Assembly: GCA_046563655.1 (NCBI GenBank)
Contig: CM102287.1
Coordinates: forward strand, 9,052,001-9,116,000
Origin: Yuukianura sp. NJ FZ-2021
Taxonomy: Eukaryota
Direction of reading: 5' to 3'
DNA length: 64,000 nucleotides
The number at the start of each line of letters is the position of its first letter. The first letter of the stretch is position 1. Of the stretch, positions 7,651-61,766 are shown one piece after another. The translations under genes were made by a program, and so were the position numbers. The notes below the pieces were generated by a model that worked only from the letters and a program-made list of their open reading frames with translations, had not been told where the DNA came from and searched no databases.

Positions 7651-8283
7651 AGGGCATTCACACAAAAAATCGCTGAAATCGCTTCTCTTCATGTTCCGGA
7701 CAAAACAAATGAGCTTCTTTTAAACAGGGCTGCTATTAATTAGTTTTAATCAACGTTTCACCTTTTGACCTCGCCAAGTTCTTGCCAATCATGTTGACAA
7801 AAACTTGTTGACAACGCGAAAACTGTTCATGAAATGTACCGCTACGCTTTCAAAAATTTTGCCTTTCTACTGTAACTAAAAATTTAGCAGCTATTTAGTC
7901 TTTTAGTTTCTATTTTTCTTTTTCCTGTTTTGAATTTTTACTGTTTGTTGGCAGCGAAAAGTTTTGTATATTTTGACGCGTTCCATGCTGAAACTAATCG
8001 TAAGTTTTGTGACGCATGGAATAAAAACAACCGTCTAAATACTGTATCACTTTTTCTGTCACGTGACCTTGACCTCTCATTTTGGCATGACCTTTGACCT
8101 TTGACCTCTCATGTGATACTTTAAGATACAGGTTCTGTCGGAGGTTTTGGAGCCAAGTATAAGCGATGACCAAATGCCATTGTTGGCACAACGCCAAAGT
8201 ACCCCATGCGGGGAACGCCGTTCTGAAATTTTGAAAATTTAAAGTGTTTTTGTGAAAACCAAATTTAGTTTTTTGGATTTTTA

Positions 8284-9067
8284 ATGTTCGTCTAAAAACG
8301 CAAGGCACTTTGTTTACAGAAATTTACACTGATTTTTTACTTGTTGCCATACGTTACTCAAATGTTGCGCACAATCCGCGCTACATCATTTGTAACCACT
8401 AATCATCTGAATCTGAATCTAAATCATCAAAGCTAATATCGGAATCAGAGGAATCATTCCCAAGTTCAATAATTATTGGTTGAATTGCGTTCGTCATAAA
8501 CTCCTCAGCGATTTTCTCTTTTTCCATGATCATGTCTTCCAGTTCCTCCACATGTCGACAGCACGCAGGCCAAAGTTGAACAATTTCGTCAGAATTCATT
8601 ACCTCCTTTGTAAGTGATAGCAAATCCTTACGTTTAGAGTAACCGATGTCCTTTTGCTAACATTTTCCCATTGGAAAGGTATACTTCCTGGATCCAACTT
8701 GCCTGACTTAATGTTGTCTTGAATCATAATTTTTTCTACTGTAAGTTTTCTATGAGTCGATTCGATTAATTCTTTCTCTTCTTTGCTCTTTGCTTTAGGC
8801 ATTGTAGTAATTGTAGTAATTAACACGACTAATCTTAAGTGGAATTACAAGGAGAAAAAAGTGAACCAGAAAACGGTAAAAGAGTAAAAAGTGACAAAGA
8901 AATGATTTTTGTCAAATGACACTGCAGCGATGGGAAGTTTTAGAATAACCGACTCATGCGCCGGTGTATACATGATTCTGCGCTTGCGCATCCCAACCCG
9001 CGCCGAACAAGTCAAAAATATTAAATTTTGAGAATAAACAAAGTGCCTTGCGTTTTTAGACGAACAT
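8284..9067 (-). mobile_element. Internally deleted IS630/Tc1/mariner-type element in the last MGAT1-A intron
   Basis: 33-bp perfect TIRs ATGTTCGTCTAAAAACGCAAGGCACTTTGTTTA (8284-8316, 9035-9067); TA on both sides; transposase-like N-terminal (MPKAKSKEEK, from 8802) and C-terminal (WPACCRHVEELE...DSDSDD) pieces with no catalytic core. Confidence 0.8.
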
Positions 9068-9286
9068 TAGTCTTTTTACCCAAAAATCCTCCATAATTTT
9101 AAGTTCGCCGGCCAATTTTTGGAATTGAAGGGGCCAGTCAAAGAAGTGCCTCTACCAAATTTTGGTATTTAGAAAATCGCGTCGCCAGGGCAATTTTTGA
9201 AAAAATTAACACTTTAATCGTAAAAGCCGGCCACAAAATACGTTCTCCGAGTGAAATTCCATTTACTGAACAGATTTTTATCAAAG

Positions 9287-11802
9287 TTAGTTGGACATAA
9301 CAGTATCATAAAAAACTTTTTCTGGAGAAATTACGAAGTTTTTCAAAAGTTCCTGAATGTTCTCAAATTTCGAATTTTTTACTGGAATAAATCCAGAATA
9401 AGCTGACGGAACCAAATTAAGTGTGTTACGTAGAAGACCAATGGTGACATTTCTGTTTCTAATGTCGAAAGGAGTGTTGAAAGGCCCGGAAGTTGCGTTT
9501 CTACAAGTTATGTCGCCATTGGCGTCGCTCCTAAACCCCTTGAAAGCGCGAATCCCGACGGGAGGCCGAAGTAGAGGCTCCAAAACTGACTTGAAGTCAA
9601 GAACGGTTACGATTTCTGTGCCGTCAGCACAAAGGTTGTCAGTAAGTGGATGCTCAATGTACGCAATTTGAAACGGCAGGGATGGCTGGGCCTTCTTCAG
9701 CAGCGTAATCCAGTCCGATGGAAATAGAAATTTGTCTTCTTTCTTCTTTAGTTTTTCAATCCTTGCAAAGTCACGGTCACACGGCATACGGCTGTGTCCG
9801 ACAATAGGAAACGAAATTGTGACTTCTTGAAATCGAGTTCCTAAAGAAGACAGATAGGCAAGCAGGTATTTGTTTTTGTTTTGCCCACCAGAATTATCGG
9901 AATACAGGTTGAGTTTTGTAATTCCCGGATCAAGTTTGGTGTCAATGTAGTTCTGCAGGGCTGAAATTACTTCGTTTGGACCTTTTTTTGCATATGTTTC
10001 TGCATAAATGTACATTGTCGCTGTTCCAGTCCTGAGGTTGTGAATACAAAGATTGTAAATCCAAAGTTGTCTGCTGAAGAATTCCCGTGTGACGTTGGTT
10101 ACTGGCAATGGTAAATTTTTTTCAAAATCGAAACATAGACACGCTGTGTCATTTGGGAGCTGAGATACTTCTTGTTTGGAAATTAACTTGTAGAATTCTT
10201 CTGCCGCGGTCAAGTGATCTTCATGTGCCAATTTGAGCAAAGCTAATTTCTGCTGGTCATTTTCTATTTCCGCTGATTTTTGCTCCGCGGCATTGCGCTC
10301 ACAAGTTTCACATATGTCAGATCTGGGATATCCAAACGAAATATTGAATTCCGTATTGAAAATTTTTTCAAATAGCCACTTCTTCGCTCGAATACGTCCT
10401 GTGTTGGGCAGTTGGACAGCAGTTGGACTGTGTTCTGGATGTTGAGTGATGAACTCATTGTACAACGCCGAAATTGACAGATTTGACTCCAAATACGTTC
10501 TGCTGGGATTTTCTTGTCTTGAATAATGAGATGTTCTAGGTTCTAGACTTCCTAAAAACGAGCGAATGGCTATTTTGACATCTGCGGGTACACTTTCATG
10601 ATGACCATGCTTTCCTCTTCCGTCTCGAACATTAGCTTCCACATTCAGCACCTGAAATCAACACACTATGTATAAATATAATGTCCTTTAGTTGTTAGGT
10701 TAAGGTTAACCATTACTTTAAATCTTAACGTATAAACATAACTATGCTATTCATTGCATTAAACTTATGGCAGGTGTTAAATTAACGCCATTTATGTTAA
10801 GTTAAGCTTAGCTTATAAGTTAAGCTAAAGTTATGTTATGTTGAAAGTTGAGTTAATGTTAGGTTATACGTTAAGTTAAAATTATGTTGTTGAACGTTAT
10901 GTTAAGGTTAGGTTATACACTTAGTTAAGATTATGTTATGTTGAACGTTATGTTAAGGTTAGGTTATACAATTATGTTATGTTATGTTATATAAAATTAT
11001 GTTATGTTAAATTATAAGTTATTGGTAGGTCAAAGTTTAGTTAAGGCTACTTTATGTTGTATGTTAAGTAAACATTATCTTATACATATACATATATGTA
11101 TGTGTGTACACATATACATATGTATATGCATAACATAATTCTAACATATGTTAAACATATGTTAAACTGCTCAGTGCGGCAGAAAGGTCATCTGATAGTT
11201 ATAAAATAGTTAAACACTGGTCATTATAACATTGACTTGCCTTTCGTCTGAGCCTTGAACGTTTGATGTCCAGCAGGGCGAGAAGGAACTTTTGACATAC
11301 TTGGGTTGTACCACTGCCAGGATTGAGATGATAGACATTAGAATGTGCGTTATTGCCAATTCCGGTATTTACAACGCAGCCTCTCAAGAAAAGTGTTTGT
11401 TCTTCATTGTTTTGTAGTGCTCGGTAGGCCTGAAACATTGCGTCCATCTCATGTTGCGTAAACTTGTCCAGGCATCTGGGGTCACACGTACACTGGTACT
11501 CTCTTCGCTCTTTGGCTGGAACAACGTCACCATGCTTGTCAATGTAAGCGTTTCCTATAAACCGTGAGAGACATCGTTAATTTTTTTAAAGCGAACTTTT
11601 AAAATAATATTCTCACCTCCAATTCTAGCGAGTTTATTGGTGGTTTGTTTCCAAAGTTGTGGTTGTCGGACTCGCTTTTTGGGTCTTTGAATCGGGTATT
11701 GTGGAGGTAAACCGGCGGCATTTTGTACCTGTTTGTGGCAAGTTTTCATATCAGCATTGTTATTGCAGGTTATGGTTAAGTTTTCAGGCTTACGTTGGCC
11801 AT
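9287..11802 (-). CDS. DDE/DDD transposase, about 600 aa, spliced
   Basis: Motifs CFDFEKNL, KGPNEV, YSDNSGGQNKN, GHSRMPCDRDF; in-frame introns 11555-11616 (GT-AG) and 10652-11240 (GC-AG); the 3-codon first exon at 11794-11802 is tentative (alternative start 11749). Confidence 0.8.
10780..11165. repeat. Low-complexity (GTTAT/GTTAA)n and (TA/CA)n tract in the transposase intron
   Basis: Repeated TTATG/GTTAAG units, duplicated GTTGAACGTTATGTTAAGGTTAGGTTATAC block, TATACATA quasi-palindrome. Confidence 0.8.
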
Positions 11803-14619
11803 AACTTCAAGAGTAGTGGTCCTAGTGCGATCGGTAGTCCTTTTCCGCTAAGGCGGACGCAAAACGATAACCATTAACTTGCTAAACTTTCAAATTGTCA
11901 ATCGAAACCCGCAAAAGCTAATCGAATTTTACAAATTTGAAATGATAAGAAACGAAGTGGTTTAAGGCTAGTCTACCAAAAACATACTTCCACTCGTATC
12001 GCATATCCGTTTCCAGTGAATTACGGCTGGGCAGAACTCTGAAATCTATTTGGAATTCGGTAAAATAATCGTTTCAGCGTTTCGTTTACTCACTGATGAT
12101 TAATTAGTGCTTTAATATATTATTATTGTAATTCTCAAGCGTAAGTGATGAATACGCAAAATTTTAATTGTTGCTATCAACAACTAAAATTAGTAATCAA
12201 CAAAATTCTAGAGGCACTTCTTTGACTGGCCCCTTCAATTCTTTGTTGTCTCGGTACGTAATTCGAAATTCCTTTTTTGGTTTTAGATCTAACGATTGAG
12301 GAAATCGTCCGTAGCGTTTTAAAAGTTTAATTGCTTCTACAACTTCTGAATTTTCGTCCAAGTTTTGTTCAATTTCGGATATCGAATGTATAGGAGTAGC
12401 AAGTTCAACGCGGGCACGAAAAGCGGAGTTGTAATCTGACTGCTGCATGAAACAAAATGAGTCAAAAATTCAAAAACTTTTCAAAATTTTAAAATGGTTC
12501 AAAATGGATTTACTCATGGATTCTTACCTTGAGCAAGTAGGACAAGTCTAATTTTGTAAAGTTGACAAGTTTGTCGTTGAGTTTGATAAATTTGAGATGC
12601 GATTCGAAGTACATGCCGCTGGTAGTAAAAAAAAAACGTTCAGAATTTGTTTATAAGTTTTTGTTTAAAATTTTGAATTTTGAAATTTTTTGAAATCTCG
12701 CTCACTTGCTGGCTCCCGATTTTCCAAACGTATACGTCCGTGAAATTTCTGGACGGATACATGCTCGATCTTTTCGTTGATCCGGTTCTCTCATCCAGCT
12801 ATCCCAGAATCTTCAAAAATCCAAATTTTGAATTCAATTTTTGAATTCAAATTTTTAATTCAATTTCAAAATCTTATTGCTTACCTAATTGGCCATTTTG
12901 GACCCAGTTCCTCCCAAATGTTTTTCGTCATCATCCAGCCAAGTCCTGGAAAAAAGTCTGTTCGATGCAGCATCTCTGAAGCGTTGACGTCAATTCGTTC
13001 TGGTCGTCCGTTGTCGTTCCACGCAGAAACGCACCAGAGAGATTCGTCTTTTTTGAGTAACGGTAAAGTAGCTGCGAAGTATTCGTAAAAATCAGGAGCC
13101 ACTTCAAGGTCATCTGAAACGTAAACATCACAATTTCACAACTTTGAATATTTGTTTAAAAAATTGAAATTTTGCGTCTATGTACTGTGTACCTTCTACA
13201 ATTATGACAGTAGAGTAGCCAAAGACATTGAAAACGTGATCAAGAGCCCAGCCGTAGTGACGTGCAATGTAGTAGTAACCGGAGATGTGTTTGTGACCAG
13301 ATTGTACGTCAATTTGTGATTGATCTGGTTGCTAAAATTTCAAAATCAAAGACGAAATTTTGAGTTTTTGAAATTTTTCAAAAATTTGTCCACTTATTAC
13401 GTAAATATGTATGATTTTTGGTTCGTAGGGGGCAATAGCTTCAGTTGTTTGATCATGATGCCCGCAGTCCTGTGACACGATAATTGGAAACTGCGTACTG
13501 GATGGTCGATACTCCAAAAGTTTGTCCAAGCATTTTGTCACCGTTGGACGATTACAAACCAAAACCAAAACAGCTATGAAAAGAAAAGTGTTGAATTTTA
13601 AAATTTAGATTTTTTGGAAAAAAGTTAAATTTCGTGACCCCTGACACTTTACCTATTACTGACTGCATGATTTCCCGGTGAGAGATTTGTTGCGTCTGTG
13701 CGTCCTCGGAGAGTTTTTCGGTGACCTTGACCTGATCGTCGTTACTTGCTTCATCCTTTCTCAAAATTGATTGGAATTCGAACAGTGAACTTTTGACCTC
13801 TTCGATAGTGGTTGACAGTTGCTCGAATAGAGAGAAGTAGCGATCCAGTGAACTGTTGATTTTCACAAGCATAATTGACTCTTGTATAGACCGGGGGTCC
13901 GGCACCGGTAGAGACGTTGATGCTTCTCGTATTTGCAGATTCTAAATTTAAAAAAAATATGCAACACAATATAAAAATTATGAAAAAAATTCATTTTTAA
14001 TTTTTTTTTTTTTTTTTTGCTTTTGTGATTTTGCTTTACCAGTTCTGAAGACTCTTCCACTGCAAAAAGTGCTTTGCGATGAACTTGGAGCATCAAGAAG
14101 AAAACTCCGGCGGAGAGACAAATCAAAACAAAATGGTGCCTATGGCACACTTTTCTCATTTTAGTCAACTTGACCTCACTTTTGCATTAGTCCAACCTCA
14201 CTGAGAGGAAAAACAATAAAGTTCATGTCAATTTAAAAAAAAAGTGATAGGATATGGCCTAATATGGCATTAAAAATTTAGAGGAAAGTTTAAAATATGT
14301 CGTGAATAGTAGTCGATCAAATGTTGGTCAATAGAGTAGACAGGTTTTCGATAATCCAAGGACTTCTTTTCCAACATTTCGTGTCAAGCGTGTCCTTTTT
14401 ATGATCAAGGTTGCGTTATAACCTTGTTGCATGTCTAATTTGTTCAAACTTTTGCTCAAATTTATGTCCTTGAAATAATGAAACTTAAAAAAAAGAAGCA
14501 AGTTGAACCTTTTACATCGAAAGTGTTTCTAGTCACAGAATTTCAGTGCAGTTTTTAGATTTAGTAGAATTTATAGCTTTTAGTTAAATTAATTACTCTA
14601 AACTAAAATATTTTAAATT

Positions 14620-16956: not shown

Positions 16957-19048
16957 TCAGCTCTTGTATCCTGGCCATTTGGCGTTGGGTTGCAAATAAA
17001 CTCTATGGTTAGACAACATTGTGGACACAATTCCGAGGTAGGCTGTACGAGGAACGCCGGCCTGAAGTGACAAACAACTTGAAATTAGTCAGGAAAATTA
17101 CTTTTACAAAGTGTATGAGGTTTTGAATTGCTTGAACTTACTCTAAGATCGTCCATGATTTGTAGTTGTTTGGCTAGTTTGTAAAATTGAGCATCGTTTC
17201 CATACTGGAGTCTGTACTCCTTCTTTTCTCCGTCATCAGACGTAGGCAAGTCGTTGATTGAACGGAGCAATGTCGCTGAATTGACGTGAGCCAGGAATTG
17301 CTTGTCATAGTTTTCCTGTAAGAATTTTACAATTTCAGTCTACTATTGAAGAACTTCGACAATTTTTTAGTTTGCACTTACTTTGATTAAATATGACAAA
17401 TCCTTAGAGGTAAACGGCACAGACTTGTCATTGAGCTTGATGAATTTCAGATGTGACTGATAGTAAGTTCCGCTGAATGAAAAGCCAATAATGTTATTTT
17501 GCAAGGCAGAGATTATTTGCAAATTCTAAAATTGTGGAACCGACTTACCGGCTGACTCCAACTTTCCCAAAAGTACTCGTTCGGGAAATCTCGGGTCGTA
17601 TACATGCCCTACCCTGTCGCTGCTCTGGTTCTCTCATCCAATCGTCCCAAAAACTGCAAACCATAATGCAAAATGTACAGATATTATACAGACATAAGCG
17701 GAAATGATATCGGAGCTAACCCTGGTGGCCACTTTGGACCGAGCTCCTGCCACAACTCCTTAGTAAGCATCCATCCCAGTCCAGGGAAAAAGTCAGTTCG
17801 GTAGAGCAAGTCTGGGGCACCAAGGTCGATTCGATTTGCTTTTCCATTGTCGTTCCAGGCAGAAACGCACCAGAGAGACGGATCTTTCCGGAGCACCGGA
17901 AGAGTGGCGGAAAAATATTCAAAAAAATCTGGAGCCACTTCAATGTCATCTGGAAATAATATATTGTTGTCCACAAGAAAATCACGGGTTAGTTTTAGGT
18001 GCTTCTTGTCTTTCACTGAATGAATTTCTAACAGGAAGGAAGGGACGTTGGTTTACCTTCGACAATCACGACAGTTGAGTAATTGAGCTTGTTGAAGGCA
18101 TAGTTGAGAGCCCAACCATAGTGTCGTGCTATTTTGTAGTAACCTTCGTACTGCAAATGATCTTGTTCCACTTGAATATGAGACAGATCCGGTTGCTAAA
18201 AGTAGCAAGCAAAAATCTATCATCAAATGCTGGAACTGTTAGTTGAAGTTGTAATGCATAGTTCTTACGAAGATATGAGTCAACTCAGATTCATAAGGCT
18301 TGAGGGCCTCCATCGTTTTGGCATGTTGGCCGCAATCTTGAGTAAGAATAATTGGAAATTTTTGTTTTGAAGGCCGATACTGGAGGAGTTTATCCAAACA
18401 TCTTGTAACAGTAGGTCGATTGCAAACAAAAACTAGGACGGCTGAAGGAGAGAAGTTTAATAGTCAGGAGCTATAAGTTTGAGTTAATTGATTGATGACT
18501 TCCTTGAGCGTAACAAACCTATCACTGACTCTTTACTTTGGTCCTCCATTACTTCGTGAGCACCATTTTCATCTTCTTCGGCTGGAACTGCAACATGTCC
18601 CTTGTCCAATTCTTGGTCACCCTCACTATGTACCTCGCCGATGTGAGTTTCTTGTTCCAAAACATGGCGGAGCTCCGCGAATCTTTCGCGGTCATTTTGA
18701 ATTTTCTTGCGTAGTTCCTCTTCCAGAGTGGAATTGGAAGCTTTATTGGCGTCTTTGAGCTTTTTTAATAAAATGCTCGAGTCATGAACCTGAGACTCAA
18801 TTTCATTCTCAATTGCTGTCATTCTATGATTCAGCTCTTCATAGTTAGGTTTCTAGAAATCAAACAAATTGAGTAATTTTTGTACTACATTCTTTCTTGA
18901 CTCGTTTATATAAAAACGTTATTCTTACCGGTATCCGGGTATCTCCTTGGCCAAGAGGTGACATTCGATTATGTAGGACAAACATAAGGAAGAGAAGACC
19001 TCCGAACACGCAAACCAGGAAAAAGTACTGTCTGTTGACCCGCCTCAT
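16957..19048 (-). CDS. MGAT1: GnT-I / MGAT1 paralogue B, intact
   Basis: TM N-terminus, stem, [56 protein letters not shown]...WPGYKS*. Confidence 0.95.
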
Positions 19049-30404: not shown

Positions 30405-31702
30405 TTAGAATGCTAGGAGTAGATCCACAATATTTTTGAGTATGATGTCGCAGTAGATGAACAAGATGAATTCCTTGGAGTCGAGGGTGAAGAAATTTCC
30501 CATTTTGACCTTGACTGGGGCCATTGCCTTCCAGAGTTTATGGTTGAATTTTGAGGTCAATGCGTACTTGTTTCGTGACATTTGGATCAATTCTTTTGAG
30601 GCGAGATGAGACTCTGTGATCATTATGAAGAGATTCGGACCGATGATGAGAAAGCACAGTTCGGCAAAAAGAATGCATAACAGCACAATTAATGAAAGGT
30701 GCTTGAAATTCATTACTGCATAACTATGCATAATAGTTATGAGTATGACGAGGATAATGAGGTATGACTGCAATTTACTGAATGTTTGCGCAAACGCATT
30801 GCTCAGACAAGTCAAATTCAAGTACTCGATCCAATTTGCATCAAGTCCGTTTTCTCGAACATAGTTTCGCCACCTATTAATACATAACATGAATGTTATG
30901 TACAATGTGCATTATACATAGTATGCATGATGTAATAGTTTAAATTGTAATAAATTGAACGTATTACTGTTACACATTAAAGGGTGTGCAAATCTTACGG
31001 CTCTTGAGATTCCAACGTGGATTGAAAGTAGGCGTCCAAAGTAAAGTGGTAGGCGAATATCCAGTGACCAACAATGCACAGGCACACGAGTCCATGTGCT
31101 AGCGACATTGAAATGATCAAGAAAGTTATAAATTTGAGTAGCTCGTATACCTGATATTGCATTGAGGGGTCAGAGGTCAGCAGGTCAGCCGCAGTTTTGA
31201 CCAGACTCAGAAGCCATTCCAAGGTCATCGGAAAGTACCATGATAAGCTGTATAGTAGAGGAAAGTACAACAGAGTGTATACTGTGGTAAAGAAAGCGAT
31301 GATCCCGCAGCAAATTTCATATACGTTGTTTAAACCGCGTAAGTATTTGAATTGGTATGCCAATACCACATTGACAACTTGTCTCCCGCTTTCTCTACGG
31401 TCTTCCCCAAGGAAAAACCATTGTGAAAGTATAAGGGAAATGAAAACGTTATTTGCGCATATGGTCAGCAGACTCTCAATTTGACTAACGTTACCATACA
31501 ATGCCTGTGCATACAAATACAGCACAAATACACTTAAGATGAAACTTAGCACCCAGGAAATTATGTCTACAATCCAAGCTTTTTTGGATAGTAAGATGCT
31601 GTCGGGTCCTGATTCGCCACATTTGTATTCGTATGGCGTGAAGTTCAAAAATCCCGCAAATCCATATGTACATTTGTTAAAAAATTGGATTTTTGAAACC
31701 AT
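30405..31702 (-). CDS. Divergent multi-TM chemoreceptor-like protein, about 390 aa, 2 exons
   Basis: Multiple hydrophobic helices; intron ~30874-30999; C-terminus WKAMAPVKVKMGNFFTLDSKEFILFIYCDIILKNIVDLLLAF; paralogous to 34519-35999. Confidence 0.65.
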
Positions 31703-32481
31703 TTTAAAGAATGATACTGACTACTGCAAATGCTTAGATAAAAATGCACAACTTTCTCGACTGTACTAGATTTTAGATACCCCCAATTTTTATGTCAGAA
31801 AATTTTTGTGACCTATGCCGTGAAATATTTCAGCAACTGGAAGGAATTAGGCGAAATTCTTTCCAGTATTGTTGAAGAGCGACAAAACTATTTCTGGGCT
31901 CCTCGTTTCGAATTTTGTTTTAAAATAAAGTAATGGATTAAGTCGTTATCTTTTGGTTGTTAAAAACTGTTTTCAAAATTTCCATTTAAAATTTATGCTT
32001 TCCATGAAGGCTGTTTATGCTTCTAGCACGTTTAAAATGTTTATGTTTTATTCTACATTAAAACTCAAAACGCCTCTAACTTTAGAAGGCTGTTTGTCTT
32101 AATGTCTACTTCGGTTGTTTTTCTGTTATGAAAATAATATTTTGAACCAAAGTGAAAGTGACTAAGCTACTCAACCATTAAATTGAATTGAAGCAACTTT
32201 TAGATTCAATTGAGATTATTATAGTTTTAAGTGCTTACATCAGAAAAGTGAATCCATTTGCTTGTTTTCCAGCGTGAGAGGTTACTTACCTGAGTTACCT
32301 GATATCATGCAAAGGCTTTGAGAGACATGGAAAGGTTAAGCGAATGTTATGAAAAACGAAATGGAACTGCCGCAAATGAAATGAAAGTAAAACGATTAGA
32401 AGCACTTCCAATTGCGTCACTTTTGTCTCTTGATTTCCTTGAATTGGATTTATGGACAAACCTGTTTCGTTTTACGGCGGG

Positions 32482-33536: not shown

Positions 33537-34518
33537 ATCTGCTCGTCACAGAACAATAGGTTTCTCTACAATTTAGTATTCAAAAATTTTAGGTTTGTTT
33601 AGGAACTATAAGTATTGTGAAATTTTGGCAATTTAAAAAATGTTTTCAAATTTTGGAAGTTTAAACATGTGTGAGGTGTTTTATACAAATTGTTGCATAC
33701 TGTATTCGGTATATTTTGTTTTTATTTATATTTGTAATGCTGTAATAACATTTAAACCTTTATGACGACGGAGTATCATACACATGATGCTTAAGTAGAG
33801 TTCTTTAACACTTTAACTCGCGTTTTACCAGGCTTCTCTTACAAATGAAGAAACTTGCAATTGTTAGAAACTTTACAAATCAAGCGGTTAGGTTGGTTAG
33901 ATTTAGGAAAACCGGCTTCTAAAAATAGACAAACTACAATAATTTGTATAATAATGTATAATGAATTTTGAATTTTTCATCTGCAACGTAGTTGTCAAAA
34001 AACCCTCATAGAACTGCTATTAGCATTTAAAAAAACACTTTTCAATTTTACTTTACTTTTTCTGTCTTTGTTTTTCCTGGAAAAATAGAACGATTATTAT
34101 GCTGTTGTTCCAAAAAAAACATGTTTTATTGACAGATAAGTTTGTCTTCCTTTTTAAGCGTTTTTGTCGCTTTTTACTTTCTAAAAAATTCGGTTTTTTG
34201 GAACATTTGACATTGTTTTTAATAATTTATTTAGTAAATTTTAGGCAATAAACGCTATAACGTCTTTTCTCACTTCTAAACTTCATGCATATGGGATTAC
34301 TTACTTACTTAAATATTCCTCCGCTTCAAGTCTTCTAATTAACTTTTTTTAAGTTGCTTGAAAAAGACCATATAAAACTGAAAGCTCAAAAATTCAAAAG
34401 TGGCACTCTGAAAACCAAAAAAATATCCTACACACAAAGAACTTGGAGAGTAGAGTTTTAAAATATTGGAGAGAAGAGAGCTTTTTAAATTGGACACAAA
34501 AAATTTTTAAGGCCCAAA

Positions 34519-35999
34519 ATGAAGAAAGAGAAAATCCAAAATTTTGTTGACTCGGTAGTCAAAAGTTTGTATGATTTTGGAAATTTTTGTTGTTGTACGA
34601 AGTTGAGTTACGTAAGTGAAAAAGACAGACCAAAACAGTTAGTTATAAAACAAAAACAAATTGAGTACATTGGAGTTCCAATGTTCCTTATTTTATCTGC
34701 CTACGTAGCCTACATGTACGTAGAGTCAATGTTAGGCCAAGTTACACAATTTGAGAAATTTGTCATTTTTGGAATCAATTTTGCCTTTTCACTCCTCTGT
34801 GTTACTCAACTATTTTTTCTTTTTGAGTCCAAGTGGATTCCTGCTAGAAACGTACTAAATTGTGCCCTGCAACTTCGATACGAAGAACAAATGGAACCAC
34901 CAGTTGTGTACCAACTGCTTTGTATAGTTGTTGGATCATCGGGAATTACATATCCGTTTACGTTTTTACCGGCATTGTACCTTACCGCCTGGTTTTTACC
35001 TGGAATACAACGGAATCTACTCAATGGACTGAAGATTATGGCCGTACTAGTTGCAGAGGGTGATGAAGTTAACGCAAAAGTAATTTTTTCGGTACTGCAA
35101 TTCATTGTATTCCTTATCATCGCGTGCGCAATGAGTCATGGTCTGATAAACTTCTCAATCTTGATACACTGGATATATACGTATCACTTCACCCTGGTCC
35201 AACAAGTTGGACAAATCCGGTAAATTTTCTTAGCAATTTCATTGTATAAGACGCGATTTTGTATAACGCGCACTTGGTGTTTGCCCTGTATTTTGGTAAA
35301 ATTTGCACAATACACATTTGGTAACATTTGCATAATATACATTTGACAAAATTTGCACGACTTACATTTGCCAAAATCTGTAGAACATGCATCAGCACAC
35401 TTTTGCATTACTACAAAGTAAGTTGTTTCTTATATCCTAGTCGACTTGACCTTGATATTGACCTTGCCATTGGTTTTAGGAAACTCATTGACCCGACAGT
35501 TACTGCTGGAAGTGAAGGCTGGATAAATTTTGGCTTGAATCAGCAATTCCGTACTGCTGATGATGCTGCGATCAAGAAATACTTGCGCCTCAAAACACTG
35601 AATCGATCGTACAACGCAAGTTTCAACCTCATCTTTTCCTTAATCTACTATGACGGTGTTGGCTTTACCATAACATTTACGTACATGGTCCTCCGAGCCA
35701 ATGAACTACCAGTTCCCCTTATGCTGGCAGTAGTTGGGGCTTTACTGTGTGGTGCAACTATCATCAACTTTCTACTCAACCTGGTCACAAATTCACATAT
35801 TGCATCTAAAGCCTTCCTCAGAATGGCAGTTCTCAAGTATCAGCAAATCTCCAAGTATCGAGTAGCATTTTGGAGTTCAATGACCCCACTTAGAGTTCAA
35901 GTCGGTGATTTTTTCACATTTGAAACTAGAGAGCTACTGCTGGTAATTTTCGGGGAAGTTATTATTAAAACTGTAATTGACATGCTTGTATCCTTCTAA
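34519..35999 (+). CDS. Divergent multi-TM chemoreceptor-like protein, about 420 aa, 2 exons
   Basis: Intron 35220-35440; shares SHGL..HWI..YHFTL, SH.ASK and FWSSMTPLRVQVGDFFTF...IIKTVIDMLVSF-type motifs with 30405-31702. Confidence 0.65.
35288..35410. repeat. Degenerate ~25-bp intronic minisatellite
   Basis: ACATTTG(G/A/C)(T/C)AA(A/C)ATTTGCA units, 4-5 copies. Confidence 0.7.
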
Positions 36000-40315: not shown

Positions 40316-43022
40316 ATGGCCGACGTTTTGGCCGTAGTCATTCACCTTCTGCAGTTACTTAAATTTCCACTACCAATTCCGCAACATGCTGGAAATCTGG
40401 TTTCTCTTATTGCAACTTTAACTGCAATGCTGTCCAATCAAAATTACGTAAATGATATGAAAATCAATCCAAATCCGTCACTTACTGCGCCACCGCAAGT
40501 CTACGACTTTATTATTGGTAAGCAAGCACTAAAGTAGAAAAAAATATGAAAATTGTTCTTCTTTTTTTTAAAACTTGGAATTTTTGGAAATAGTTGGAGC
40601 AGGTACTGCTGGAGCTGTTGTGGCAAACCGTCTTTCTGCAAATCCAAAATTCAATGTTTTGCTACTGGAAGCTGGCGGAGATCCGTCATTTTTGAATACC
40701 ATTCCAGCCCTAGCTGCGCTAAATATGCATCAACAGGACACAGATTGGCACTACAAATCGACTCCAGGCATTAACTATGGACTTGGAATGACTAACAATG
40801 TAAGGCATATAGAAACATATAGATTTACAATTAATTAATCTTAATTAAAGTTAACCAAAGAGTAATAATAATAGAATATTTTATGTTTTAGTGTATTTCA
40901 ACTTTTTACCAACAAATTGTTATAATTTCAGACGATACGATTGTCCAGGTTCAAAGGGTTGGGTGGATGCTCGTCACACAATTGGCTAGTAAATGCAAAT
41001 TTTTGAAAAATTGAAAAACAACTTTTTTGAGCTTTTTTGAAATTACCTTTGACCTAGGTGTACAACCGAGGTCATCCGAAGGACTTCGACAACTGGGCTA
41101 AACTTACTGGAGACGAGAGTTGGAACTACGAGCATGCGCTTAAGTATTTCAAAAAATTTGAAAACTACAGAGGCAAATACCCGGATGGTAAAGTTTTTGA
41201 GGAAAAATGACAAAATTTGAAAAAATTAATTTAAGTTTTAGTTATTTAACTTAGCAATATTGTTATATTATATTAATTTTTAGCCCGCTATCATGGTAAG
41301 GACGGCCCATTTGCAGTGGCTGACAACAACGATTGGTCGGTTCCCAGCATGGAAGCGTGGAACGACGCAGGGGCCGAACTGGGTTACGAAGTTGGAAGAG
41401 ACTTTAATTCAAGGCAAAGCCAAAGTAAGAATTCCAAATTTTAAAATGTTTACAAAATGTCTAGCAAATTAGTTCTTTTCAAGAAAAATTTCATTAAAGG
41501 TTTTGGAAAAACCGACCTAAAGCGAACAGTTGACGGCAGAAGATCGGATACTTACACTACCTACATCAAACCGATTTTGAATAGACCCAATTTCAAGGTC
41601 ATTCGATTCGCTCACGTTGAGAAGGTCATTTTGGACGAAAGCAAGAGAGCCGTAGGCGTTATTTACAAAAGACATGACGAAAAAATTGAAGTTCGTGCGT
41701 CAAAAGAAGTCATTTTGAGTGCCGGCACGATTGGTACGACACAACTCATGCTTCTTTCTGGTATCGGACCCAAGGCACACCTCAAATCCGTAAATGTAAG
41801 TATACCGTGCTACTGGTATTCTACACTGTTTTACCGGTATACGGTACCGTACTACTGGTATGCTATATTGTTTTACCGCTATACGATACCGTGCTACTGG
41901 TATGCTGTACTGTTTTACCGGTATACGATACCGTGCTACTGGTATGCTATAGTGTTTTACCGGTATACGATACCGTGCTACTGGTATGTTGTACTGTTTT
42001 ACCGGTACATTGCACCTTGACCGGTTGTAAATACTCATATTGAAATCTTGATGCTTTTTTGAATCTGGCGCTAGGTGGAGTCACTAGTTGACCTGCCAGG
42101 AGTTGGTGAGAAACTTGAGGATCATGCTGTAACTATTCTGGGCCCTATTTTATTTGACAAACCGGTATCGTTTATGCCAAGCCGAGACATCAACATGAAG
42201 GATGCTGAAGAGTATGCACAGAAAGGCACCGGCTATTTCGCTGCAAATTCACTCGGTGGCTTTACTCACATTGCTTCCAGCGTATCAGACGATCCGAACT
42301 GGGGTGACGTCCAAGTATTTCAGTTTCCCTTTGGCAATGACCCTTTGACCCCTTACCTCCTCAATACTGTTTTCGGACTCAAAGATGGATTACTGGAGGA
42401 GTATCTAAAACCATACATGGGCATGGATGGAAACTTTCCGGCCTTGAACGTTGGACGGCCGAAGAGTACCGGAACAATCCGACTCGCTTCGAACAATCCC
42501 GATGATCATCCACTCATTGATCCAAATTACTATGATCATCCGGATGACATGAAGGCACAAGTTGACGGATTTAAATTAATTGAGAAAATGTATGAACATA
42601 CAAAGGCTTTCGGTAAATACGGATCTCGACTGCCTCCAACGAAATTTCCGGGGTGCGAAAATTTTGAATTGAGAACTGACGCTTATTACGAATGTTTCGC
42701 CCGTCATACCACTACATCCTTGTTTCATCTTTCTGGAACTTGTAAAATGGGACGAGCAGATGACCCCAAAGCGGTGGTTGACTCACGACTCAGGTCAGCT
42801 CAAAACACAATCATCAAAAGTTTCAGAATTTCACAAAAAAATTTTTTTTTTTTTTGTTTTGCTAGAGTGTTCAAGGTCAAAGGACTGCGAATTGCTGATG
42901 CTTCCATCATGCCAAAAATTACAAACGCAAATATTAATACCCCGACGCTCATGATTGGAGAAAAGGCTGCCGATATGATTCTGAGTGACTATGCGGACGC
43001 ATCACATCGAGCAGAACTTTAA
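40316..43022 (+). CDS. GMC oxidoreductase (glucose dehydrogenase-like), C-terminal RAEL
   Basis: YDFIIVGAGTAGAVVANRLS, LLLEAGG, KGLGGCSSHN, EVILSAGTIGT, LFHLSGTCKMG, LRIADASIMP, NINTPTLMIGEKAAD. Confidence 0.95.
41802..42007. repeat. 42-bp minisatellite, about 5 copies, in a GMC intron
   Basis: ATACCGTGCTACTGGTATGCTRYAYTGTTTTACCGGTATACG repeated just after the GTAAG donor at 41796. Confidence 0.9.
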
Positions 43023-43656: not shown

Positions 43657-45744
43657 ATGGACAACACTGCTAAAATGGAAAACAAAGTCACGTCCTTTGG
43701 AGGTAGCACGAACAAGGTATACAAAACAATCAACAAAATGTTTCTCAACTAGGTACTTAAAATTTTTAATTTCTTTATGAATTGTTCGTTTTACTTAAAA
43801 ACTTGAATATTTTCATTGTAGGATACAAATCACGACGGGGATTTACCGCCGGAACTTGGAATTACTCTTGACCGAAAAAATTTACTTCGCGAATCGTTTC
43901 CCGCCGATTTCAAGTTCGGCATGGGCGGATCGGCTGTGCAAATCGAAGGCGGTTGGAACGCTGACGGAAAAGGCCCGTCAGTTTGGGATACTTTATGTAT
44001 TGAAAATCCAAAAGCAATCGAAGATGGGTCAACTTGTTTTGTAACCTGCGACTCCTACAACCAATGGAAGGAAGACGTTCAACTCTTAACTCAACTTGGG
44101 GTAAAATGAGATTTTTTTAATGGTTTTACGTCAGGATTTTGTAATTCGCGGGACAATTTTTCATCGTTTTAGTGCAACAGTTACAAGTTTTCTTTGTCCT
44201 GGTCACGGATTTTACCCAACGGAGACCTATCGGTCGTAAACCAATCAGGAATTGACTACTACAATCAGCTGATAGACGCTTTGCTCCAAGCTGGAATCGA
44301 ACCCTTGGTTGTCCTTTGGCACTTTGATCTCCCGACGGCACTTGCACAGAAGTTTACTTGGAAAGATGAAGGACTCATTCCACATTTCGTCAATTACGCA
44401 CAACTCTGTTTTGAAGAATTTGGTGACCGTGTAAAGCTGTGGATGACGATAAATGAACCTTGGGTTCACGTAGTGGCAAGCTACGACCTAGCACTCCATC
44501 CACCGAAACTCAGCGAACCAGAAGCGGTTTACATTGCTTTACATAATTTGATTCTTGCTCATGCGCAGATTTACAGACTTTACCAACAAGAGTTCAGGAA
44601 TAAGCAAAACGGTCAAGTTGGTATTAGTTTGGACTCTTTTGGATTGGAACCGGCAACGGATTCGGCGGAAGACGAAGCAGCGACACAAATTTCTTTTGAA
44701 TTTCGGTTTGGCATAGTTGCTTCCCCGCTCATTTTCGGGAAATATCCCGATTGTGTCCGAGAACGGGTAGACCGAAACAGCAAACTCGAAGGGCGGGAAA
44801 AATCAAGGTTGCCGGTAATCACTCCTGAACTGTCGGCACTGCTCAAAGGTAATCAGGCTTAATAAACAGGGTTGTCAAAAATATGTAAAAACGGGCAAAG
44901 TATTGATGAATATGTTTTGTTTTTAAAAATGGTCCAAATATTTACGAATTAAGGGAAATAAATATTTAATCACAAAATCCATAAACATTTTTGATTAACA
45001 TTACGGGCGTGGAGACTAAATATTTTGGACACCCCTGTTAATAAATCATTTTATCTAAATTTTAAAAAAATAGTTTAGTATTCATATAATTCAGTTTGTT
45101 TATGCAGGAACTGTGGATTTTATTGGTTTGAATTACTATTCTTGCGAAAAAGTTTCTGTAACACAAGCCGCAATGCCGGAAGGGGTTGCACGAGTTGTTT
45201 TTTCGAGTTCGGACAAACTCGGATTTTACGGAGACACGGGTAATTACCACTTTCATGACCCCGCCTGGGGCGGGTCATCTGTTTGGTGGCTCAAGGTCAC
45301 CCCGCCAGCTCTACGCTCTCTCCTCAACAGAATCAGAACGACATACGGGAATCCCGAAATTTTGATATCCGAAAACGGGTTCCCGGACAAAATTGAGCGG
45401 GTAGAAGACCATGACCGATTGAACTACCTGCAGGCTCATCTCAACGAAACGCTCAAGGCAATTAAATTAGATGGATGCAATGTGACCGGCTACTACGCCT
45501 GGAGCCTTCTCGATGGCTGGGAGTGGACAACCGGACATTCGTAAGTCGCGAAAAAAAATTGTGAAAAAAAATTTCCAAAATTTTCACAAAATTTCAAAAT
45601 TTCCTGTAATTTTTTTTTCATAGTTGTACGTTCGGCGTGTTCCATGTGGACAGAACGCATCCCGATAAAATCCGAACTCCGAGATGGTCTGCCAAGGCTT
45701 TGGAAATAATTTACAAAAATCGTGGTTTTGAATCCTTTGAATAA
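43657..45744 (+). CDS. GH1 beta-glucosidase / myrosinase-like, copy 1 (no evident signal peptide)
   Basis: FPADFKFG, QIEGGWNADGKGPSVWD, SWSRILP, HFDLP, TINEP, ISENG, AWSLLDGWEW. Confidence 0.95.
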
Positions 45745-46687: not shown

Positions 46688-48750
46688 ATGGAGCGCAAAA
46701 TTACGTCGGTTGGAGGCAGCAAGAATAAGGTACACAAAATATAAAAAAAATTATGTATTTATGAATTATTTGCGCTTGAATGTTTCTGTTTTAGAATGCA
46801 AATCGTAACGGGGAAATACGACCGGAACGGGGAATTACCCTTGACCGAAAAAATTTACTTCGGGAATCGTTTCCCGCCGATTTCAAGTTCGGGGCAGGCG
46901 GATCGGCTGTGCAAATCGAAGGAAGCTGGAATGCTGACGGAAAAGGCCCGTCAGTTTGGGACACTTTGTGTATTGAACACCCAGAAGCAATCGAAGACGG
47001 ATCAACTTGTTTTGTAGCCTGCGATTCCTATAACCAATGGAGGCAAGACGTTCAACTCTTAACTCAACTTGGGGTAAAATGAAATTTTCATTTTTTTTTG
47101 TTTTGTATCCAACTTTTATAATTCGCGGGCACTTTTTCGTTTTAGTGCAATAGTTACAAGTTCTCTTTGTCCTGGTCACGGATTTTACCCAACGGAGACC
47201 TATCGGTCGTCAACCAATCAGGAATTGACTATTACAATCAGCTGATAGACGCCTTGCTCCGAGCTGGAATCGAACCCTTGGTAGTCCTTTGGCACTTTGA
47301 CCTCCCTACGGCGCTTGCCCAAAAGTTTACTTGGAAAGACGAGGGCCTCACTCCGCATTTCGTCAACTACGCACAACTCTGCTTTGAAGAATTTGGTGAC
47401 CGCGTCAAGCGGTGGATGACAATAAATGAACCTTGGGGTAGCTACGACCTGGCGCTTCAACCACCGGGACTCAGCGAAATAGATGCAGTTTACATTGTTT
47501 TGCATAATATGATTCTTGCTCATGCGCAGATTTACAGACTTTACGAACAAGAGTTCAGGGATAAACAAAACGGTCAAATCGGTATCAGTTTGGACTGTTT
47601 CGGATTGGAACCGGCAACGGATTCGACTCAAGACGAAGCAGCGACACAAATTTCTTTTGAATTTCGGTTTGGCATAGTTGCTGCCCCGCTTCTTTTCGGG
47701 AAATATCCCGATTGTGTCCGAGAACGGGTAGACGGGACCAGCAAGTCCGAAGGGCGGGATAATTCAAGGTTGCCGGTAATCACTCCTGAACTGTCGGCAC
47801 TGCTCAAAGGTAATCAGGCTTAATAAACAGGGTTGTCAAAAATATGTAAAAACGCTCAACGTATTGATGAAAAATATGTTCTTTTTTTTAAATGACCCAA
47901 ATATTTACGAATTTAACATTAAGGATATGGGCAAATAAATAAATAATTTCGTAACCTGAAACCCGTAAATATTTTTTCTTTATTAACATTACGGACATGG
48001 AGACTAAATATTTTTGAAACCCCTGTTAATAAATCATAAACCATCTTTGCTAAAAGAAAAAAAAATAGTTTAGTATTTGTAATTTGTAATTGTTTATGCA
48101 GGAACTTTGGATTTTATTGGCCTGAATTACTACTCTTGCGAAAAAGTTTCTGCGACACAAGCCGGAATACCGGACGGAGTTGCACGACTTGTTTTTTCGA
48201 GTTCGGACAAACTCGGATTTTACGGAGACACGGGTAATTATCACTTTCATGACCCCGCTTGGGGCGGGTCATCTGTTTGGTGGCTCAAGGTCACCCCGCC
48301 AGCTCTACGCTCCCTTCTGAACAGAATCAGAACGACATACGGGAATCCAGAAATTTTGATATCCGAAAACGGGTTCCCCGACAACGTTGAACGGGTAGAA
48401 GACCACGACCGGGCGAACTACCTACAGGCTCATCTCAACGAAACGCTCAAAGCTATCAACCTAGATGGATGTAATGTGACCGGGTACTACGCATGGAGCC
48501 TTCTCGACGGCTGGGAGTGGACAACCGGACATGAGTAAGTCTCAAAATAAAAATTTGCGAAATTTTTTTTTCCCAAAATGTCAAAAGTTCTTACTTTTTT
48601 TTTCGTAGTTGTACATTTGGGGTATTCCATGTGGACAGAACGCATCCTGATAAAATCCGAACTCCGAGATTGTCTGCCAAAGCTTTAGAAAAAATTTACA
48701 AAAATCGAGGTTTCGAAAACTTTGAACAAAGTGTTTCGACTTTAATGTAA
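46688..48750 (+). CDS. GH1 beta-glucosidase / myrosinase-like, copy 2
   Basis: Same exon structure as copy 1; 12-bp in-frame deletion after NEPW; stop TAA changed to CAA adds QSVSTLM. Confidence 0.9.
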
Positions 48751-59982: not shown

Positions 59983-61378
59983 TTAGCTCAAGTTGAATTG
60001 CACCAGCACGATAGTATACGTAATAGCGGCTCCAAGAATCTGGAAAGTTATTAACGTTTTTAGAAAGCCATAAAAAATTGAAACTTTAAAAAGAAAGTTT
60101 TGGAAAACTTGTTGCATACTGCAGTCATGGCTGATCTTCCAAATGTAAAAAAGCCGCAAACGTTGACTTCAAAATTTGTATTTGTAACGAACATCTTCAA
60201 GTCCCTGACGGCGCGTTCATCTCTCTTTGTCTCAAAGCCAAGGACGGCTAGCTTTAGTCTGCTGTACTGTATAGGTCATAGGTCAAATTTTCAAAACACC
60301 ATTTTTTCGAATTTGAAAACTTCCTAAAATACATTATTCGTACGCTCTGTTGAAGGTTGTGGCCAATATGGGCCTTGGAACCAATGTAGAAGGACATCCT
60401 AGCAGTTGCATCCAACATTGCAAGACCTCGCAAGGTCAAGAGGTCATCTCCGTTCAGAAGTATGTGACACGTTATAAAACTGATGTTAGATACCATGGCT
60501 GTACTAGTAGGTACGAAGAACAGAAGAGGCGGTTGTAAAGCAGACGAGAAGGCCAAAAATATTCCATGAATAGCCTTGACCTCCTGAAATATTTGGCCAA
60601 TCTGGTTTGCTGCGTTCGAATCCCCGTCCGGCCGAACTCTGATGTTGAAAGCGGGGTCAAAGGTCATATGCTGACCAAGTTTAGCAGAAATTGAGTCAAC
60701 CCGCTTAGAAATGGCGTTAGACAGGAGAAGTGCTAGCACATGATGCATGGCTGTTGTTGTTAGGACGTTCCAAAAGTGAATGATAAATACAAAACGAAGG
60801 AAAATATCTATTTTGGAAATTCGAACATTTTTACAAAAATTTCCGCAAAGGGCGGAAATTGTTGGACTTTCAAACACCATGTCATAAGATACGTTTGTCC
60901 AGTAAATATTTACTACACAATATGTAGCCCAAAAAATGAAGACAAGCGTTTGATTCCAACCAATCAACGCACTTAAACTTTTGCTGGTTGGAGATCCGCC
61001 GTTTCCAAAATTTTGATCGTAGATTGTCAAATTTTTGGAGATTAAAGTGAGTTTTGGAATTGCACGGACACAGAGAGAGTAGTTGACTGATACCAAAAGG
61101 ATTAAAGAAATTCTCAACATTGTGTCAGCTTTGTTCAAAAATTCGTTTTTGGACATCAGAGATTCTTTTACCAACAAGGCAGAAATTGGTAAAAACATGA
61201 TGACAAAAATCACGCGAAATCCTGAAACTAGGAAACTCCAAAATATTGACACTTTTTGAACAATTTGTGAGACTTTGTTGGTGTTCTTGTGATTTTCTTT
61301 AGAGTGAACTGGGAGTTGACCCAACACACGAAACAACCGAAGCAAATGCTGTATTGCTGCCAATTCGCCCATTTTCAT
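59983..61378 (-). CDS. Gustatory receptor
   Basis: Long multi-TM first exon, then NVCGFFTFGRSAMTA|ILGAAITYTIVLVQFNLS* with the canonical TYxxxxxQF motif. Confidence 0.9.
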
Positions 61379-61766
61379 ACTCTGACAATTTTACCGGAGT
61401 TTGAACGTTAACAGGTTGAACTACTAAAGATGACTATTTGACAATTTGTGACGAGATGTTTATATAAGTATTCAATAAAGTAAATTGCTCTTACACAAAA
61501 AAGTGTCATTTTTGTGATCACTAAACTAATTTATCAAATTGACTTTTTGCATTAGGTAAAAATTAATTTCCTTAATAACCCAACCGTATGCAGGCAGTAA
61601 CGCGGAACACTGTTTTAAAAAATTTGTTTGTCAACATTTATTGATCTAATTTATAAATTACATTAAGGGTGCATATACCTTATGCTAGTTCTAAGTTTTT
61701 AGGTAGTTTAACCAATAGCGTTAAAATTATGTTATAATGTAAGATAGCTTACAGTAATTTAACATA

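Follow-up and report, generated by a model that had tools for sequence, protein, structure and literature searches.

What becomes of a glycosyltransferase gene when a transposon enters one of its coding exons, and what does the intruder itself encode? Both questions are raised by a 64,000-nucleotide stretch of an assembly of Yuukianura sp. NJ FZ-2021 (contig CM102287.1, positions 9,052,001 to 9,116,000 of the forward strand; hereafter the window, in whose coordinates all positions are given). Two genes of the GNT-I family lie on its minus strand, head to tail: gene A at 14159-8121 and its paralogue, gene B, at 19048-16957. The Golgi enzyme after which the family is named, N-acetylglucosaminyltransferase I (GnT-I), transfers GlcNAc to Man5GlcNAc2 and is the gateway to N-glycans of the hybrid, complex and paucimannosidic classes. 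In the assembly, a 3110-bp transposable element that we call TE1 stands in the eighth exon of gene A and truncates its reading frame. We consider it likely that this insertion nullified a GNT-I paralogue that had been maintained for a long time.

TE1 occupies 9127-12236 and carries a gene oriented as gene A is, on the minus strand. It is bounded by a 28-nt terminal inverted repeat (9127-9154 on the plus strand, partner arm 12209-12236), and on either side of it stands a copy of the tetranucleotide AATT, one at 9123-9126 and the other at 12237-12240, where it forms the last 4 nt of the upstream portion of exon 8. Taken with this flanking sequence the inverted arms extend to 33 nt (9122-9154 and 12209-12241) and are 100% complementary; the TE1 arms rank as the second longest among 62 inverted pairs detected in a search of positions 7800-14500. 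The 28-nt end occurs at exactly two sites in the window when up to three mismatches are allowed, and two matches were obtained in none of 100 shuffled sequences. An assembly artefact was considered and rejected, as a mis-join would not yield both a perfect target duplication and perfect inverted ends.

The exon model of gene A, built from splice sites and Pfam GNT-I matches, runs on the minus strand through 14159-14040, 13941-13653, 13573-13401, 13331-13193, 13113-12885, 12810-12706, 12618-12528 and 12442-12237, the last of these being exon 8a, the part of exon 8 that precedes the element. From there the assembled frame reads ...RITYRDNKELKGPVKEVPLEFC and then meets a stop; the corresponding open reading frame (ORF), 12197-12469, ends ...DNKELKGPVKEVPLEFC, and at the crossing into TE1 the translation is ...RITYRDNKE-LKGPVKEVPLEFC-stop. 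The premature stop, at 12197-12199, lies 14 codons into the element. On the far side of TE1, exon 8b (9080-9122, ..QKLAGELKIMEDFW), recognized from the rebuilt ORF and its alignment to gene B, has been severed from the rest of exon 8. It is followed by a last intron at 8223-9079 and by a last exon at 8121-8222 (NGVPRMGYFG...APKPPTEPVS, then stop), which was taken from the ORF list and aligns to rabbit GnT-I.

When the ten exon pieces were joined without TE1 and with one AATT copy left in place, the result was a sequence of 1497 nt that stays open for 498 codons and then ends in a stop, and across the rebuilt junction (...DNKEF, then QKLAGELKIMEDFW, then NGVPR...) it aligned to gene B without a gap. 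Retaining no AATT copy, or both, gave 1493 or 1501 nt respectively and put the sequence out of frame. Since the frame is restored only with exactly one AATT, this tetranucleotide is a true 4-bp target duplication, and the host frame excludes the alternative that AATT is just the first letters of the element's ends. The initial annotation, made from the letters of this DNA, had described an exonic transposon truncating a GNT-I gene, and this is borne out by the perfect inverted ends, the AATT duplication and the stop inside the element. Its proposal that removal of 9127-12236 together with one AATT would rebuild the ORF holds as well, the 498 open codons being colinear with those of gene B, and its figure of about 48 C-terminal residues lost in the assembled gene is exact at 48. 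It had also reported no other lesion in the exons; a search for additional frameshifts or stops agrees with this, all codons being open and every inferred splice site of gene A being GT-AG. One detail needed correction: the protein does not terminate in ...APKP, as had been written, and its actual terminus is ...LYLAPKPPTEPVS, that is ...APKPPTEPVS.

The last intron had been noted, but a second element within it, here TE2, had been overlooked. TE2 occupies 8282-9069 (788 bp, strand unassigned), begins 11 nt past the donor site and is delimited by 35-nt perfect inverted arms that include a TA at each end. It is the reason why the intron measures 857 nt; with TE2 removed the intron would be 71 nt long. 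In the ancestral sequence the TE1 and TE2 insertion sites lie 53 nt apart. TE2 has no intact transposase; on its minus strand two short ORFs, of 81 and 85 aa, overlap, and they resemble the remnant of a single gene that has an acidic tail and a frame break. None of 115 candidates proved to be a homologue of TE2, its Pfam matches all fell below the cut-offs, and no further copy was found in the window by blastn, tblastn or a search for the end repeats with up to three mismatches. The Atlas related TE2 at 0.87-0.88 to clusters in which 10-13% of members carry DDE_3, a weak lead towards a Tc1-like origin.

What kind of gene was A before the insertion? Against Pfam GNT-I (cut-off 25.4 bits), its exon 5 scores 127.2 bits (E-value 9.5e-37) and its exon 3 scores 52.9 bits (3.4e-14); exon 5 of gene B matches the same family with an E-value of 3.2e-39. 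The nearest solved structure is rabbit GnT-I (1.1e-32 for exon 5, versus 7.9e-16 for POMGnT1), and the best named matches to exon 5 are alpha-1,3-mannosyl-glycoprotein 2-beta-GlcNAc-transferases from arthropods and other animals. The EDD metal-binding motif, which is described for GnT-I in PMC11065688, is present in gene A as VEDDLEVAPDF and also occurs in gene B. Gene A thus shares with the rabbit enzyme (PDB 1FO8, 1FO9 and 1FOA) the Pfam family, the EDD motif, an N-terminal hydrophobic anchor predicted from its sequence and a C-terminal GVPR block; it differs in that copy A is interrupted, in that A and B form a pair of their own, and in that no database protein among the matches listed is more than 77% identical to it, even over exon 5, its most conserved exon. 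That search gave 1791 matches among 1805 candidates, the best 120 of the 1791 being listed, and the lack of any closer protein among those listed implies that this collection contains neither the source species nor its near relatives. The proteins of the window itself did not turn up in this search, nor in the one for homologues of the TE1 protein.

Six of the exons (1, 3, 4, 5, 6 and 7) have the same length in A and B, namely 120, 173, 139, 229, 105 and 91 nt. Over the aligned residues the two proteins are 53% identical (244/459); the nonsynonymous distance (dN) is 0.40 over the whole length and 0.29 within the catalytic part, and synonymous sites are saturated, with a proportion of synonymous differences (pS) of 0.79 that leaves the synonymous distance (dS) undefined by Jukes-Cantor. 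The dN/dS ratio of A versus B, which the initial annotation had put forward as a check, is uninformative because of this saturation. A and B come out as sisters in a quick maximum-likelihood tree with 94 rows (Shimodaira-Hasegawa-like approximate likelihood-ratio test, SH-aLRT, 98.7); both have long branches, so the pairing could be a long-branch effect. We conclude from these comparisons that A and B are old paralogues and not a fresh, redundant duplicate. The description of gene A as a duplicate, with the redundancy that the word implies, does not fit an identity of 53% and a pS of 0.79.

The presence of two independent elements within 53 nt at the 3' end of gene A invites the idea that A was already a pseudogene, or was dispensable and decaying, when TE1 arrived, and that the insertion was a consequence of lost constraint. 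Two further features of A point the same way, namely an end branch 1.4 times as long as that of B (0.92 versus 0.64) and a 24-residue linker insert relative to B. The rest of the gene tells against this idea. Its 498 codons are all open, GT-AG is found at each inferred splice site, and TE2 is intronic and lies outside the splice signals. For a measure of constraint we compared A and B with 92 other GnT-I proteins, namely those of 400-520 residues among the 120 listed, other lengths having been dropped. At the 109 columns conserved in at least 95% of these proteins A departs at 6, as does the intact B, so that each keeps 103/109; mean identity to the 92 outgroups is likewise equal, at 0.458 for A and 0.458 for B. 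We regard decay before the insertion as very improbable and conclude from the sequence comparisons that gene A was a GNT-I (MGAT1-type) paralogue, long maintained under constraint and free of decay apart from the insertion.

The consequence for the enzyme can be judged from what lies beyond the break. As assembled, gene A lacks the full C-terminal domain in one frame, whereas gene B has it and so does gene A when TE1 is removed in silico. Of the 109 most conserved columns, 13 fall in the missing portion, among them M, D, GVPR, Y, G, R and P, and the last exon can be aligned with residues 312-337 of the 348 in the rabbit GnT-I chain 1fo9_A. These 13 columns, in a tail that falls within the crystallised rabbit enzyme, indicate that the lost tail matters; its loss should abolish activity, and the interrupted gene A is most likely a null allele.

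Could the interrupted allele nevertheless yield a working enzyme, either by splicing TE1 out in frame or through activity of the truncated protein of 451 residues, which ends in a foreign tail of 14? The break lies downstream of the catalytic N-terminal domain, EDD motif included, and 23 in-frame, stop-free pairs of cryptic donors and acceptors can be drawn around TE1 on paper. Splice sites were scored with simple position weight matrices derived from 18 inferred sites of A, B and TE1. Scores of the real donors range over 4.9-11.8 and those of the real acceptors over 5.4-13.3, whereas the best cryptic pair reaches a sum of -1.8. The scores thus give no hint, on weak evidence, that splicing rescues gene A, and a truncated protein would lack conserved columns that belong to the ordered part of the rabbit structure. 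We attach very little weight to a functional product from this allele and retain the view that the insertion nullified gene A.

The gene within TE1 consists of three exons on the minus strand (11749-11617, 11554-11241 and 10651-9287, including the stop) that together encode a protein of 603 residues when exon 3 is begun after its AG acceptor. Its large exon matches Pfam DUF7869 (PF25273) with 43.1 bits against a cut-off of 26 (E-value 4.5e-11, residues 212-377 of a 456-residue ORF), and a Pfam search at E-values up to 10 returned nothing beyond DUF7869. We found 79 homologues with 27-60% identity, from insects, one oomycete and many other contigs; none of the 79 bears the name transposase, and the term DUF7869 was not found in the literature searched. 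In the Atlas the protein fell among DUF7869 clusters, in one of which 11% of members carry DDE_Tnp_ISAZ013, which we treat as a lead only; a link between ISAzo13 and Sola was not found in the literature searched.

Two lines of evidence suggest what this protein does. First, an alignment of 46 sequences contains three invariant aspartates, D177, D254 and D294, with the spacing D-76-D-39-D. Second, in an AlphaFold model of the protein (pLDDT 90.2) this triad is placed as in an RNase-H-like core: D177 ends the first strand (171-178), D254 follows the fourth strand (248-253) and D294 lies in the next helix (292-304). The top structural match to the model is the simian immunodeficiency virus (SIV) integrase (Z 9.8, root-mean-square deviation 3.2 over 134 residues), Mos1 and Metnase follow with Z 9.5, prototype foamy virus (PFV) integrase and IstA are also among the best matches, and every one of the first 25 structural neighbours is an integrase or a transposase. 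Foldseek gave IstA at 6e-4 and PFV integrase at 8e-4. From the conserved triad and the model we conclude that TE1 encodes a DDD-type cut-and-paste transposase.

Assigning TE1 to a superfamily is a separate matter. The resemblance to Tc1/mariner transposases (Mos1, Metnase) and to retroviral integrases extends to the compact RNase-H-like core and the short triad spacing; identity to TE1, on the other hand, is 8-12%, and the protein has no Pfam match to those families at E-values up to 10. The duplication made by TE1 is AATT, its 4-bp length being shown by the host frame, and not the TA of Tc1/mariner. Kolobok elements are described in PMC9587614 as having a 4-bp, TTAA-specific duplication, 5'-RR...YY-3' termini and a C/DxxH signature; TE1 shares the 4-bp length and the RR...YY termini (GA...TC), but Kolobok was rejected since the duplication is AATT and not TTAA and since the C/DxxH signature is lacking. 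The piggyBac superfamily was rejected on the same difference between AATT and TTAA. The Sola superfamily is defined, in the accounts given in PMC10741241 and PMC3627910, by DDD transposases and 4-bp duplications, with AWWT reported for Sola2. TE1 shares the DDD triad (the third acid being the invariant D294), terminal inverted repeats and a 4-bp duplication whose sequence, AATT, fits AWWT; it differs in that Pfam places its protein only in DUF7869. The element fits a Sola-like mechanism, and we do not file it as a Sola member.

Related loci in metagenomes bear on the target preference. Six of 15 such loci were examined for inverted repeats, and three had ends enclosing the match: L003, with perfect 29-nt arms and ATAT outside GACTGG... 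on both sides; L004, with perfect 46-nt arms beginning CATATG; and L008, with arms matching at 85% and AATT just inside. In these three the palindromic tetranucleotide is indistinguishable from the repeat's own end. Together with the AATT of TE1 their ends point to 4-bp AWWT targets for the family. The perfect ends of L003 and L004 suggest that other DUF7869 elements are young too. Two of the loci (L003:2478-5293 and L004:363-2811) contain complete-looking, distant relatives of TE1, 2.4-2.8 kb in length, with ATAT at both ends.

Is TE1 itself still able to move? The first intron of its gene is a 62-nt GT-AG intron. The second is a 589-nt GC-AG intron in which a minisatellite (10796-10990, 51-nt unit, 3.9 copies, 82% match) is adjoined by AT-rich palindromic stretches. 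This segment might be read as a disruption, a break in the gene by AT-rich minisatellite DNA that would make TE1 non-autonomous and dependent on other copies for its mobility: the donor is a GC, which is a rare type, the other introns here are ten times shorter, and the more distant homologues P0004 and P0007-P0009 are single ORFs through this point. On the other side, the boundaries AAG/GCAAGT...TTTCAG/G, in which the GC donor has its classic context, restore both frame and homology exactly, and L001, which is 52% identical to the TE1 protein and is its closest relative with flanking DNA, has a GT-AG intron, about 58 nt long, at this very codon. The L001 intron at the matching codon implies that the 589-nt segment is an expanded intron and not a disruption. 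We consider a broken, non-autonomous TE1 unlikely. Beside the roughly 58 nt of L001, the minisatellite swells the TE1 intron to its present length. Residues 44-602 of the spliced TE1 protein align in one blastp stretch to residues 9-568 of the 582 in P0008, an uninterrupted homologue. That the element is apparently autonomous had been claimed at the outset, and the three-exon ORF, colinear with uninterrupted homologues, supports the claim; as far as the sequence goes, TE1 looks able to move.

Taken together, these results are consistent with the following history. A cut-and-paste transposon, TE1, would have entered an AATT in exon 8 of gene A and duplicated those 4 bp. The host frame now runs into the TE1 end repeat and stops after 14 foreign codons, and the last 48 residues, part of the folded C-terminal domain that includes the conserved GVPR block, are lost; the sequence shows both the insertion and the truncation. 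The non-autonomous TE2 would have landed 53 nt away, in the last intron, either before or after TE1. The identical ends, the exact duplication, the intact TE1 gene and the otherwise undecayed host gene all argue that the TE1 insertion is probably recent.

An undecayed gene A and an undecayed TE1 are also what one would expect of a young insertion that has yet to be fixed. The insertion may be confined to the haplotype or individual that was sequenced, whether heterozygous or segregating, with the species keeping a working gene A; this is compatible with nullification of the copy sequenced here, and we hold it as a real possibility at somewhat less than even chance. With similar caution we suggest a stronger version, in which TE1 is a currently active, autonomous member of a widespread transposase family, DUF7869, observed just after it entered an exon, and the knockout of gene A is a segregating null allele.

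Several points weigh against nullification of a long-maintained gene by a mobile TE1, and we gather them here. The loss of function is argued from conservation. The splice-site scoring was built on just 18 sites. The longer end branch of gene A may mean that constraint on A had already relaxed to some degree, or that its function had changed. No further copy of TE1 that would show its movement elsewhere was found in the window by blastn, tblastn or a search for the end repeat with up to three mismatches. Finally, the autonomy of TE1 hinges on the splicing of its 589-nt GC-AG intron; were this retained, the ORF would stop at about 157 residues.

The setting of the two genes is animal-type nuclear DNA of about 37% G+C with short GT-AG introns. 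Gene B (16957-19048, minus strand) is intact, with nine exons and 489 codons and the Pfam GNT-I match given above. Other genes in the window encode a calpain, a GMC oxidoreductase, two tandem GH1 glycosidases, C2H2 zinc fingers and a carrier of the major facilitator superfamily (MFS). The GH1 pair, at 44173-45544 and 47146-48538 on the plus strand, matches Pfam Glyco_hydro_1 (1e-62 and 1.3e-57), and its exon ORFs are nearly identical, which implies a duplication much younger than that of the GNT-I pair. Pairs of long ORFs at 30405-31720 (minus strand) and 34489-35999 (plus strand), divergently arranged, encode similar multi-pass hydrophobic proteins without a Pfam match, and a third ORF of the same kind lies at 60254-61390; they may represent a lineage-specific family of receptors or transporters. 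Two coding-looking tandem repeats were also seen on the plus strand, one at 2199-2656 with units of about 10 residues (..LTFRRLKSPQ..) and the other at 41445-42020 with 14-residue units (..IPCYWYAVLFYRYT..), just upstream of a GMC oxidoreductase exon.

Insertions of transposons into exons are well known, as are GnT-I genes in several copies, and the event at this locus is an ordinary, well-documented kind of recent gene knockout. What the locus adds is a specified DUF7869 element with a proven 4-bp duplication, a neighbouring second insertion and a candidate natural null. Gene callers would probably render it as a truncated gene A and a "hypothetical protein". For the host, one of its two GnT-I genes has here a natural null allele, or a candidate for one. 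Caenorhabditis elegans has three active GnT-I enzymes (GLY-12 and GLY-13 as well as GLY-14) and Drosophila has one, as given in PMC11065688. These numbers make the role of a second copy a fair question, to which this locus alone gives no answer; if the allele segregates, the function of the second paralogue could readily be tested in its carriers. Students of transposons gain from the locus a DUF7869 element whose ends and target duplication are exact and whose gene model is complete, and with these a small piece of evidence that DUF7869 forms the catalytic core in a DDD transposase. Should TE1 prove to be active, DUF7869 would be tied to a defined cut-and-paste mechanism, either Sola-like or that of a sister group of Sola, and TE1 would provide an intact element for transposition assays.

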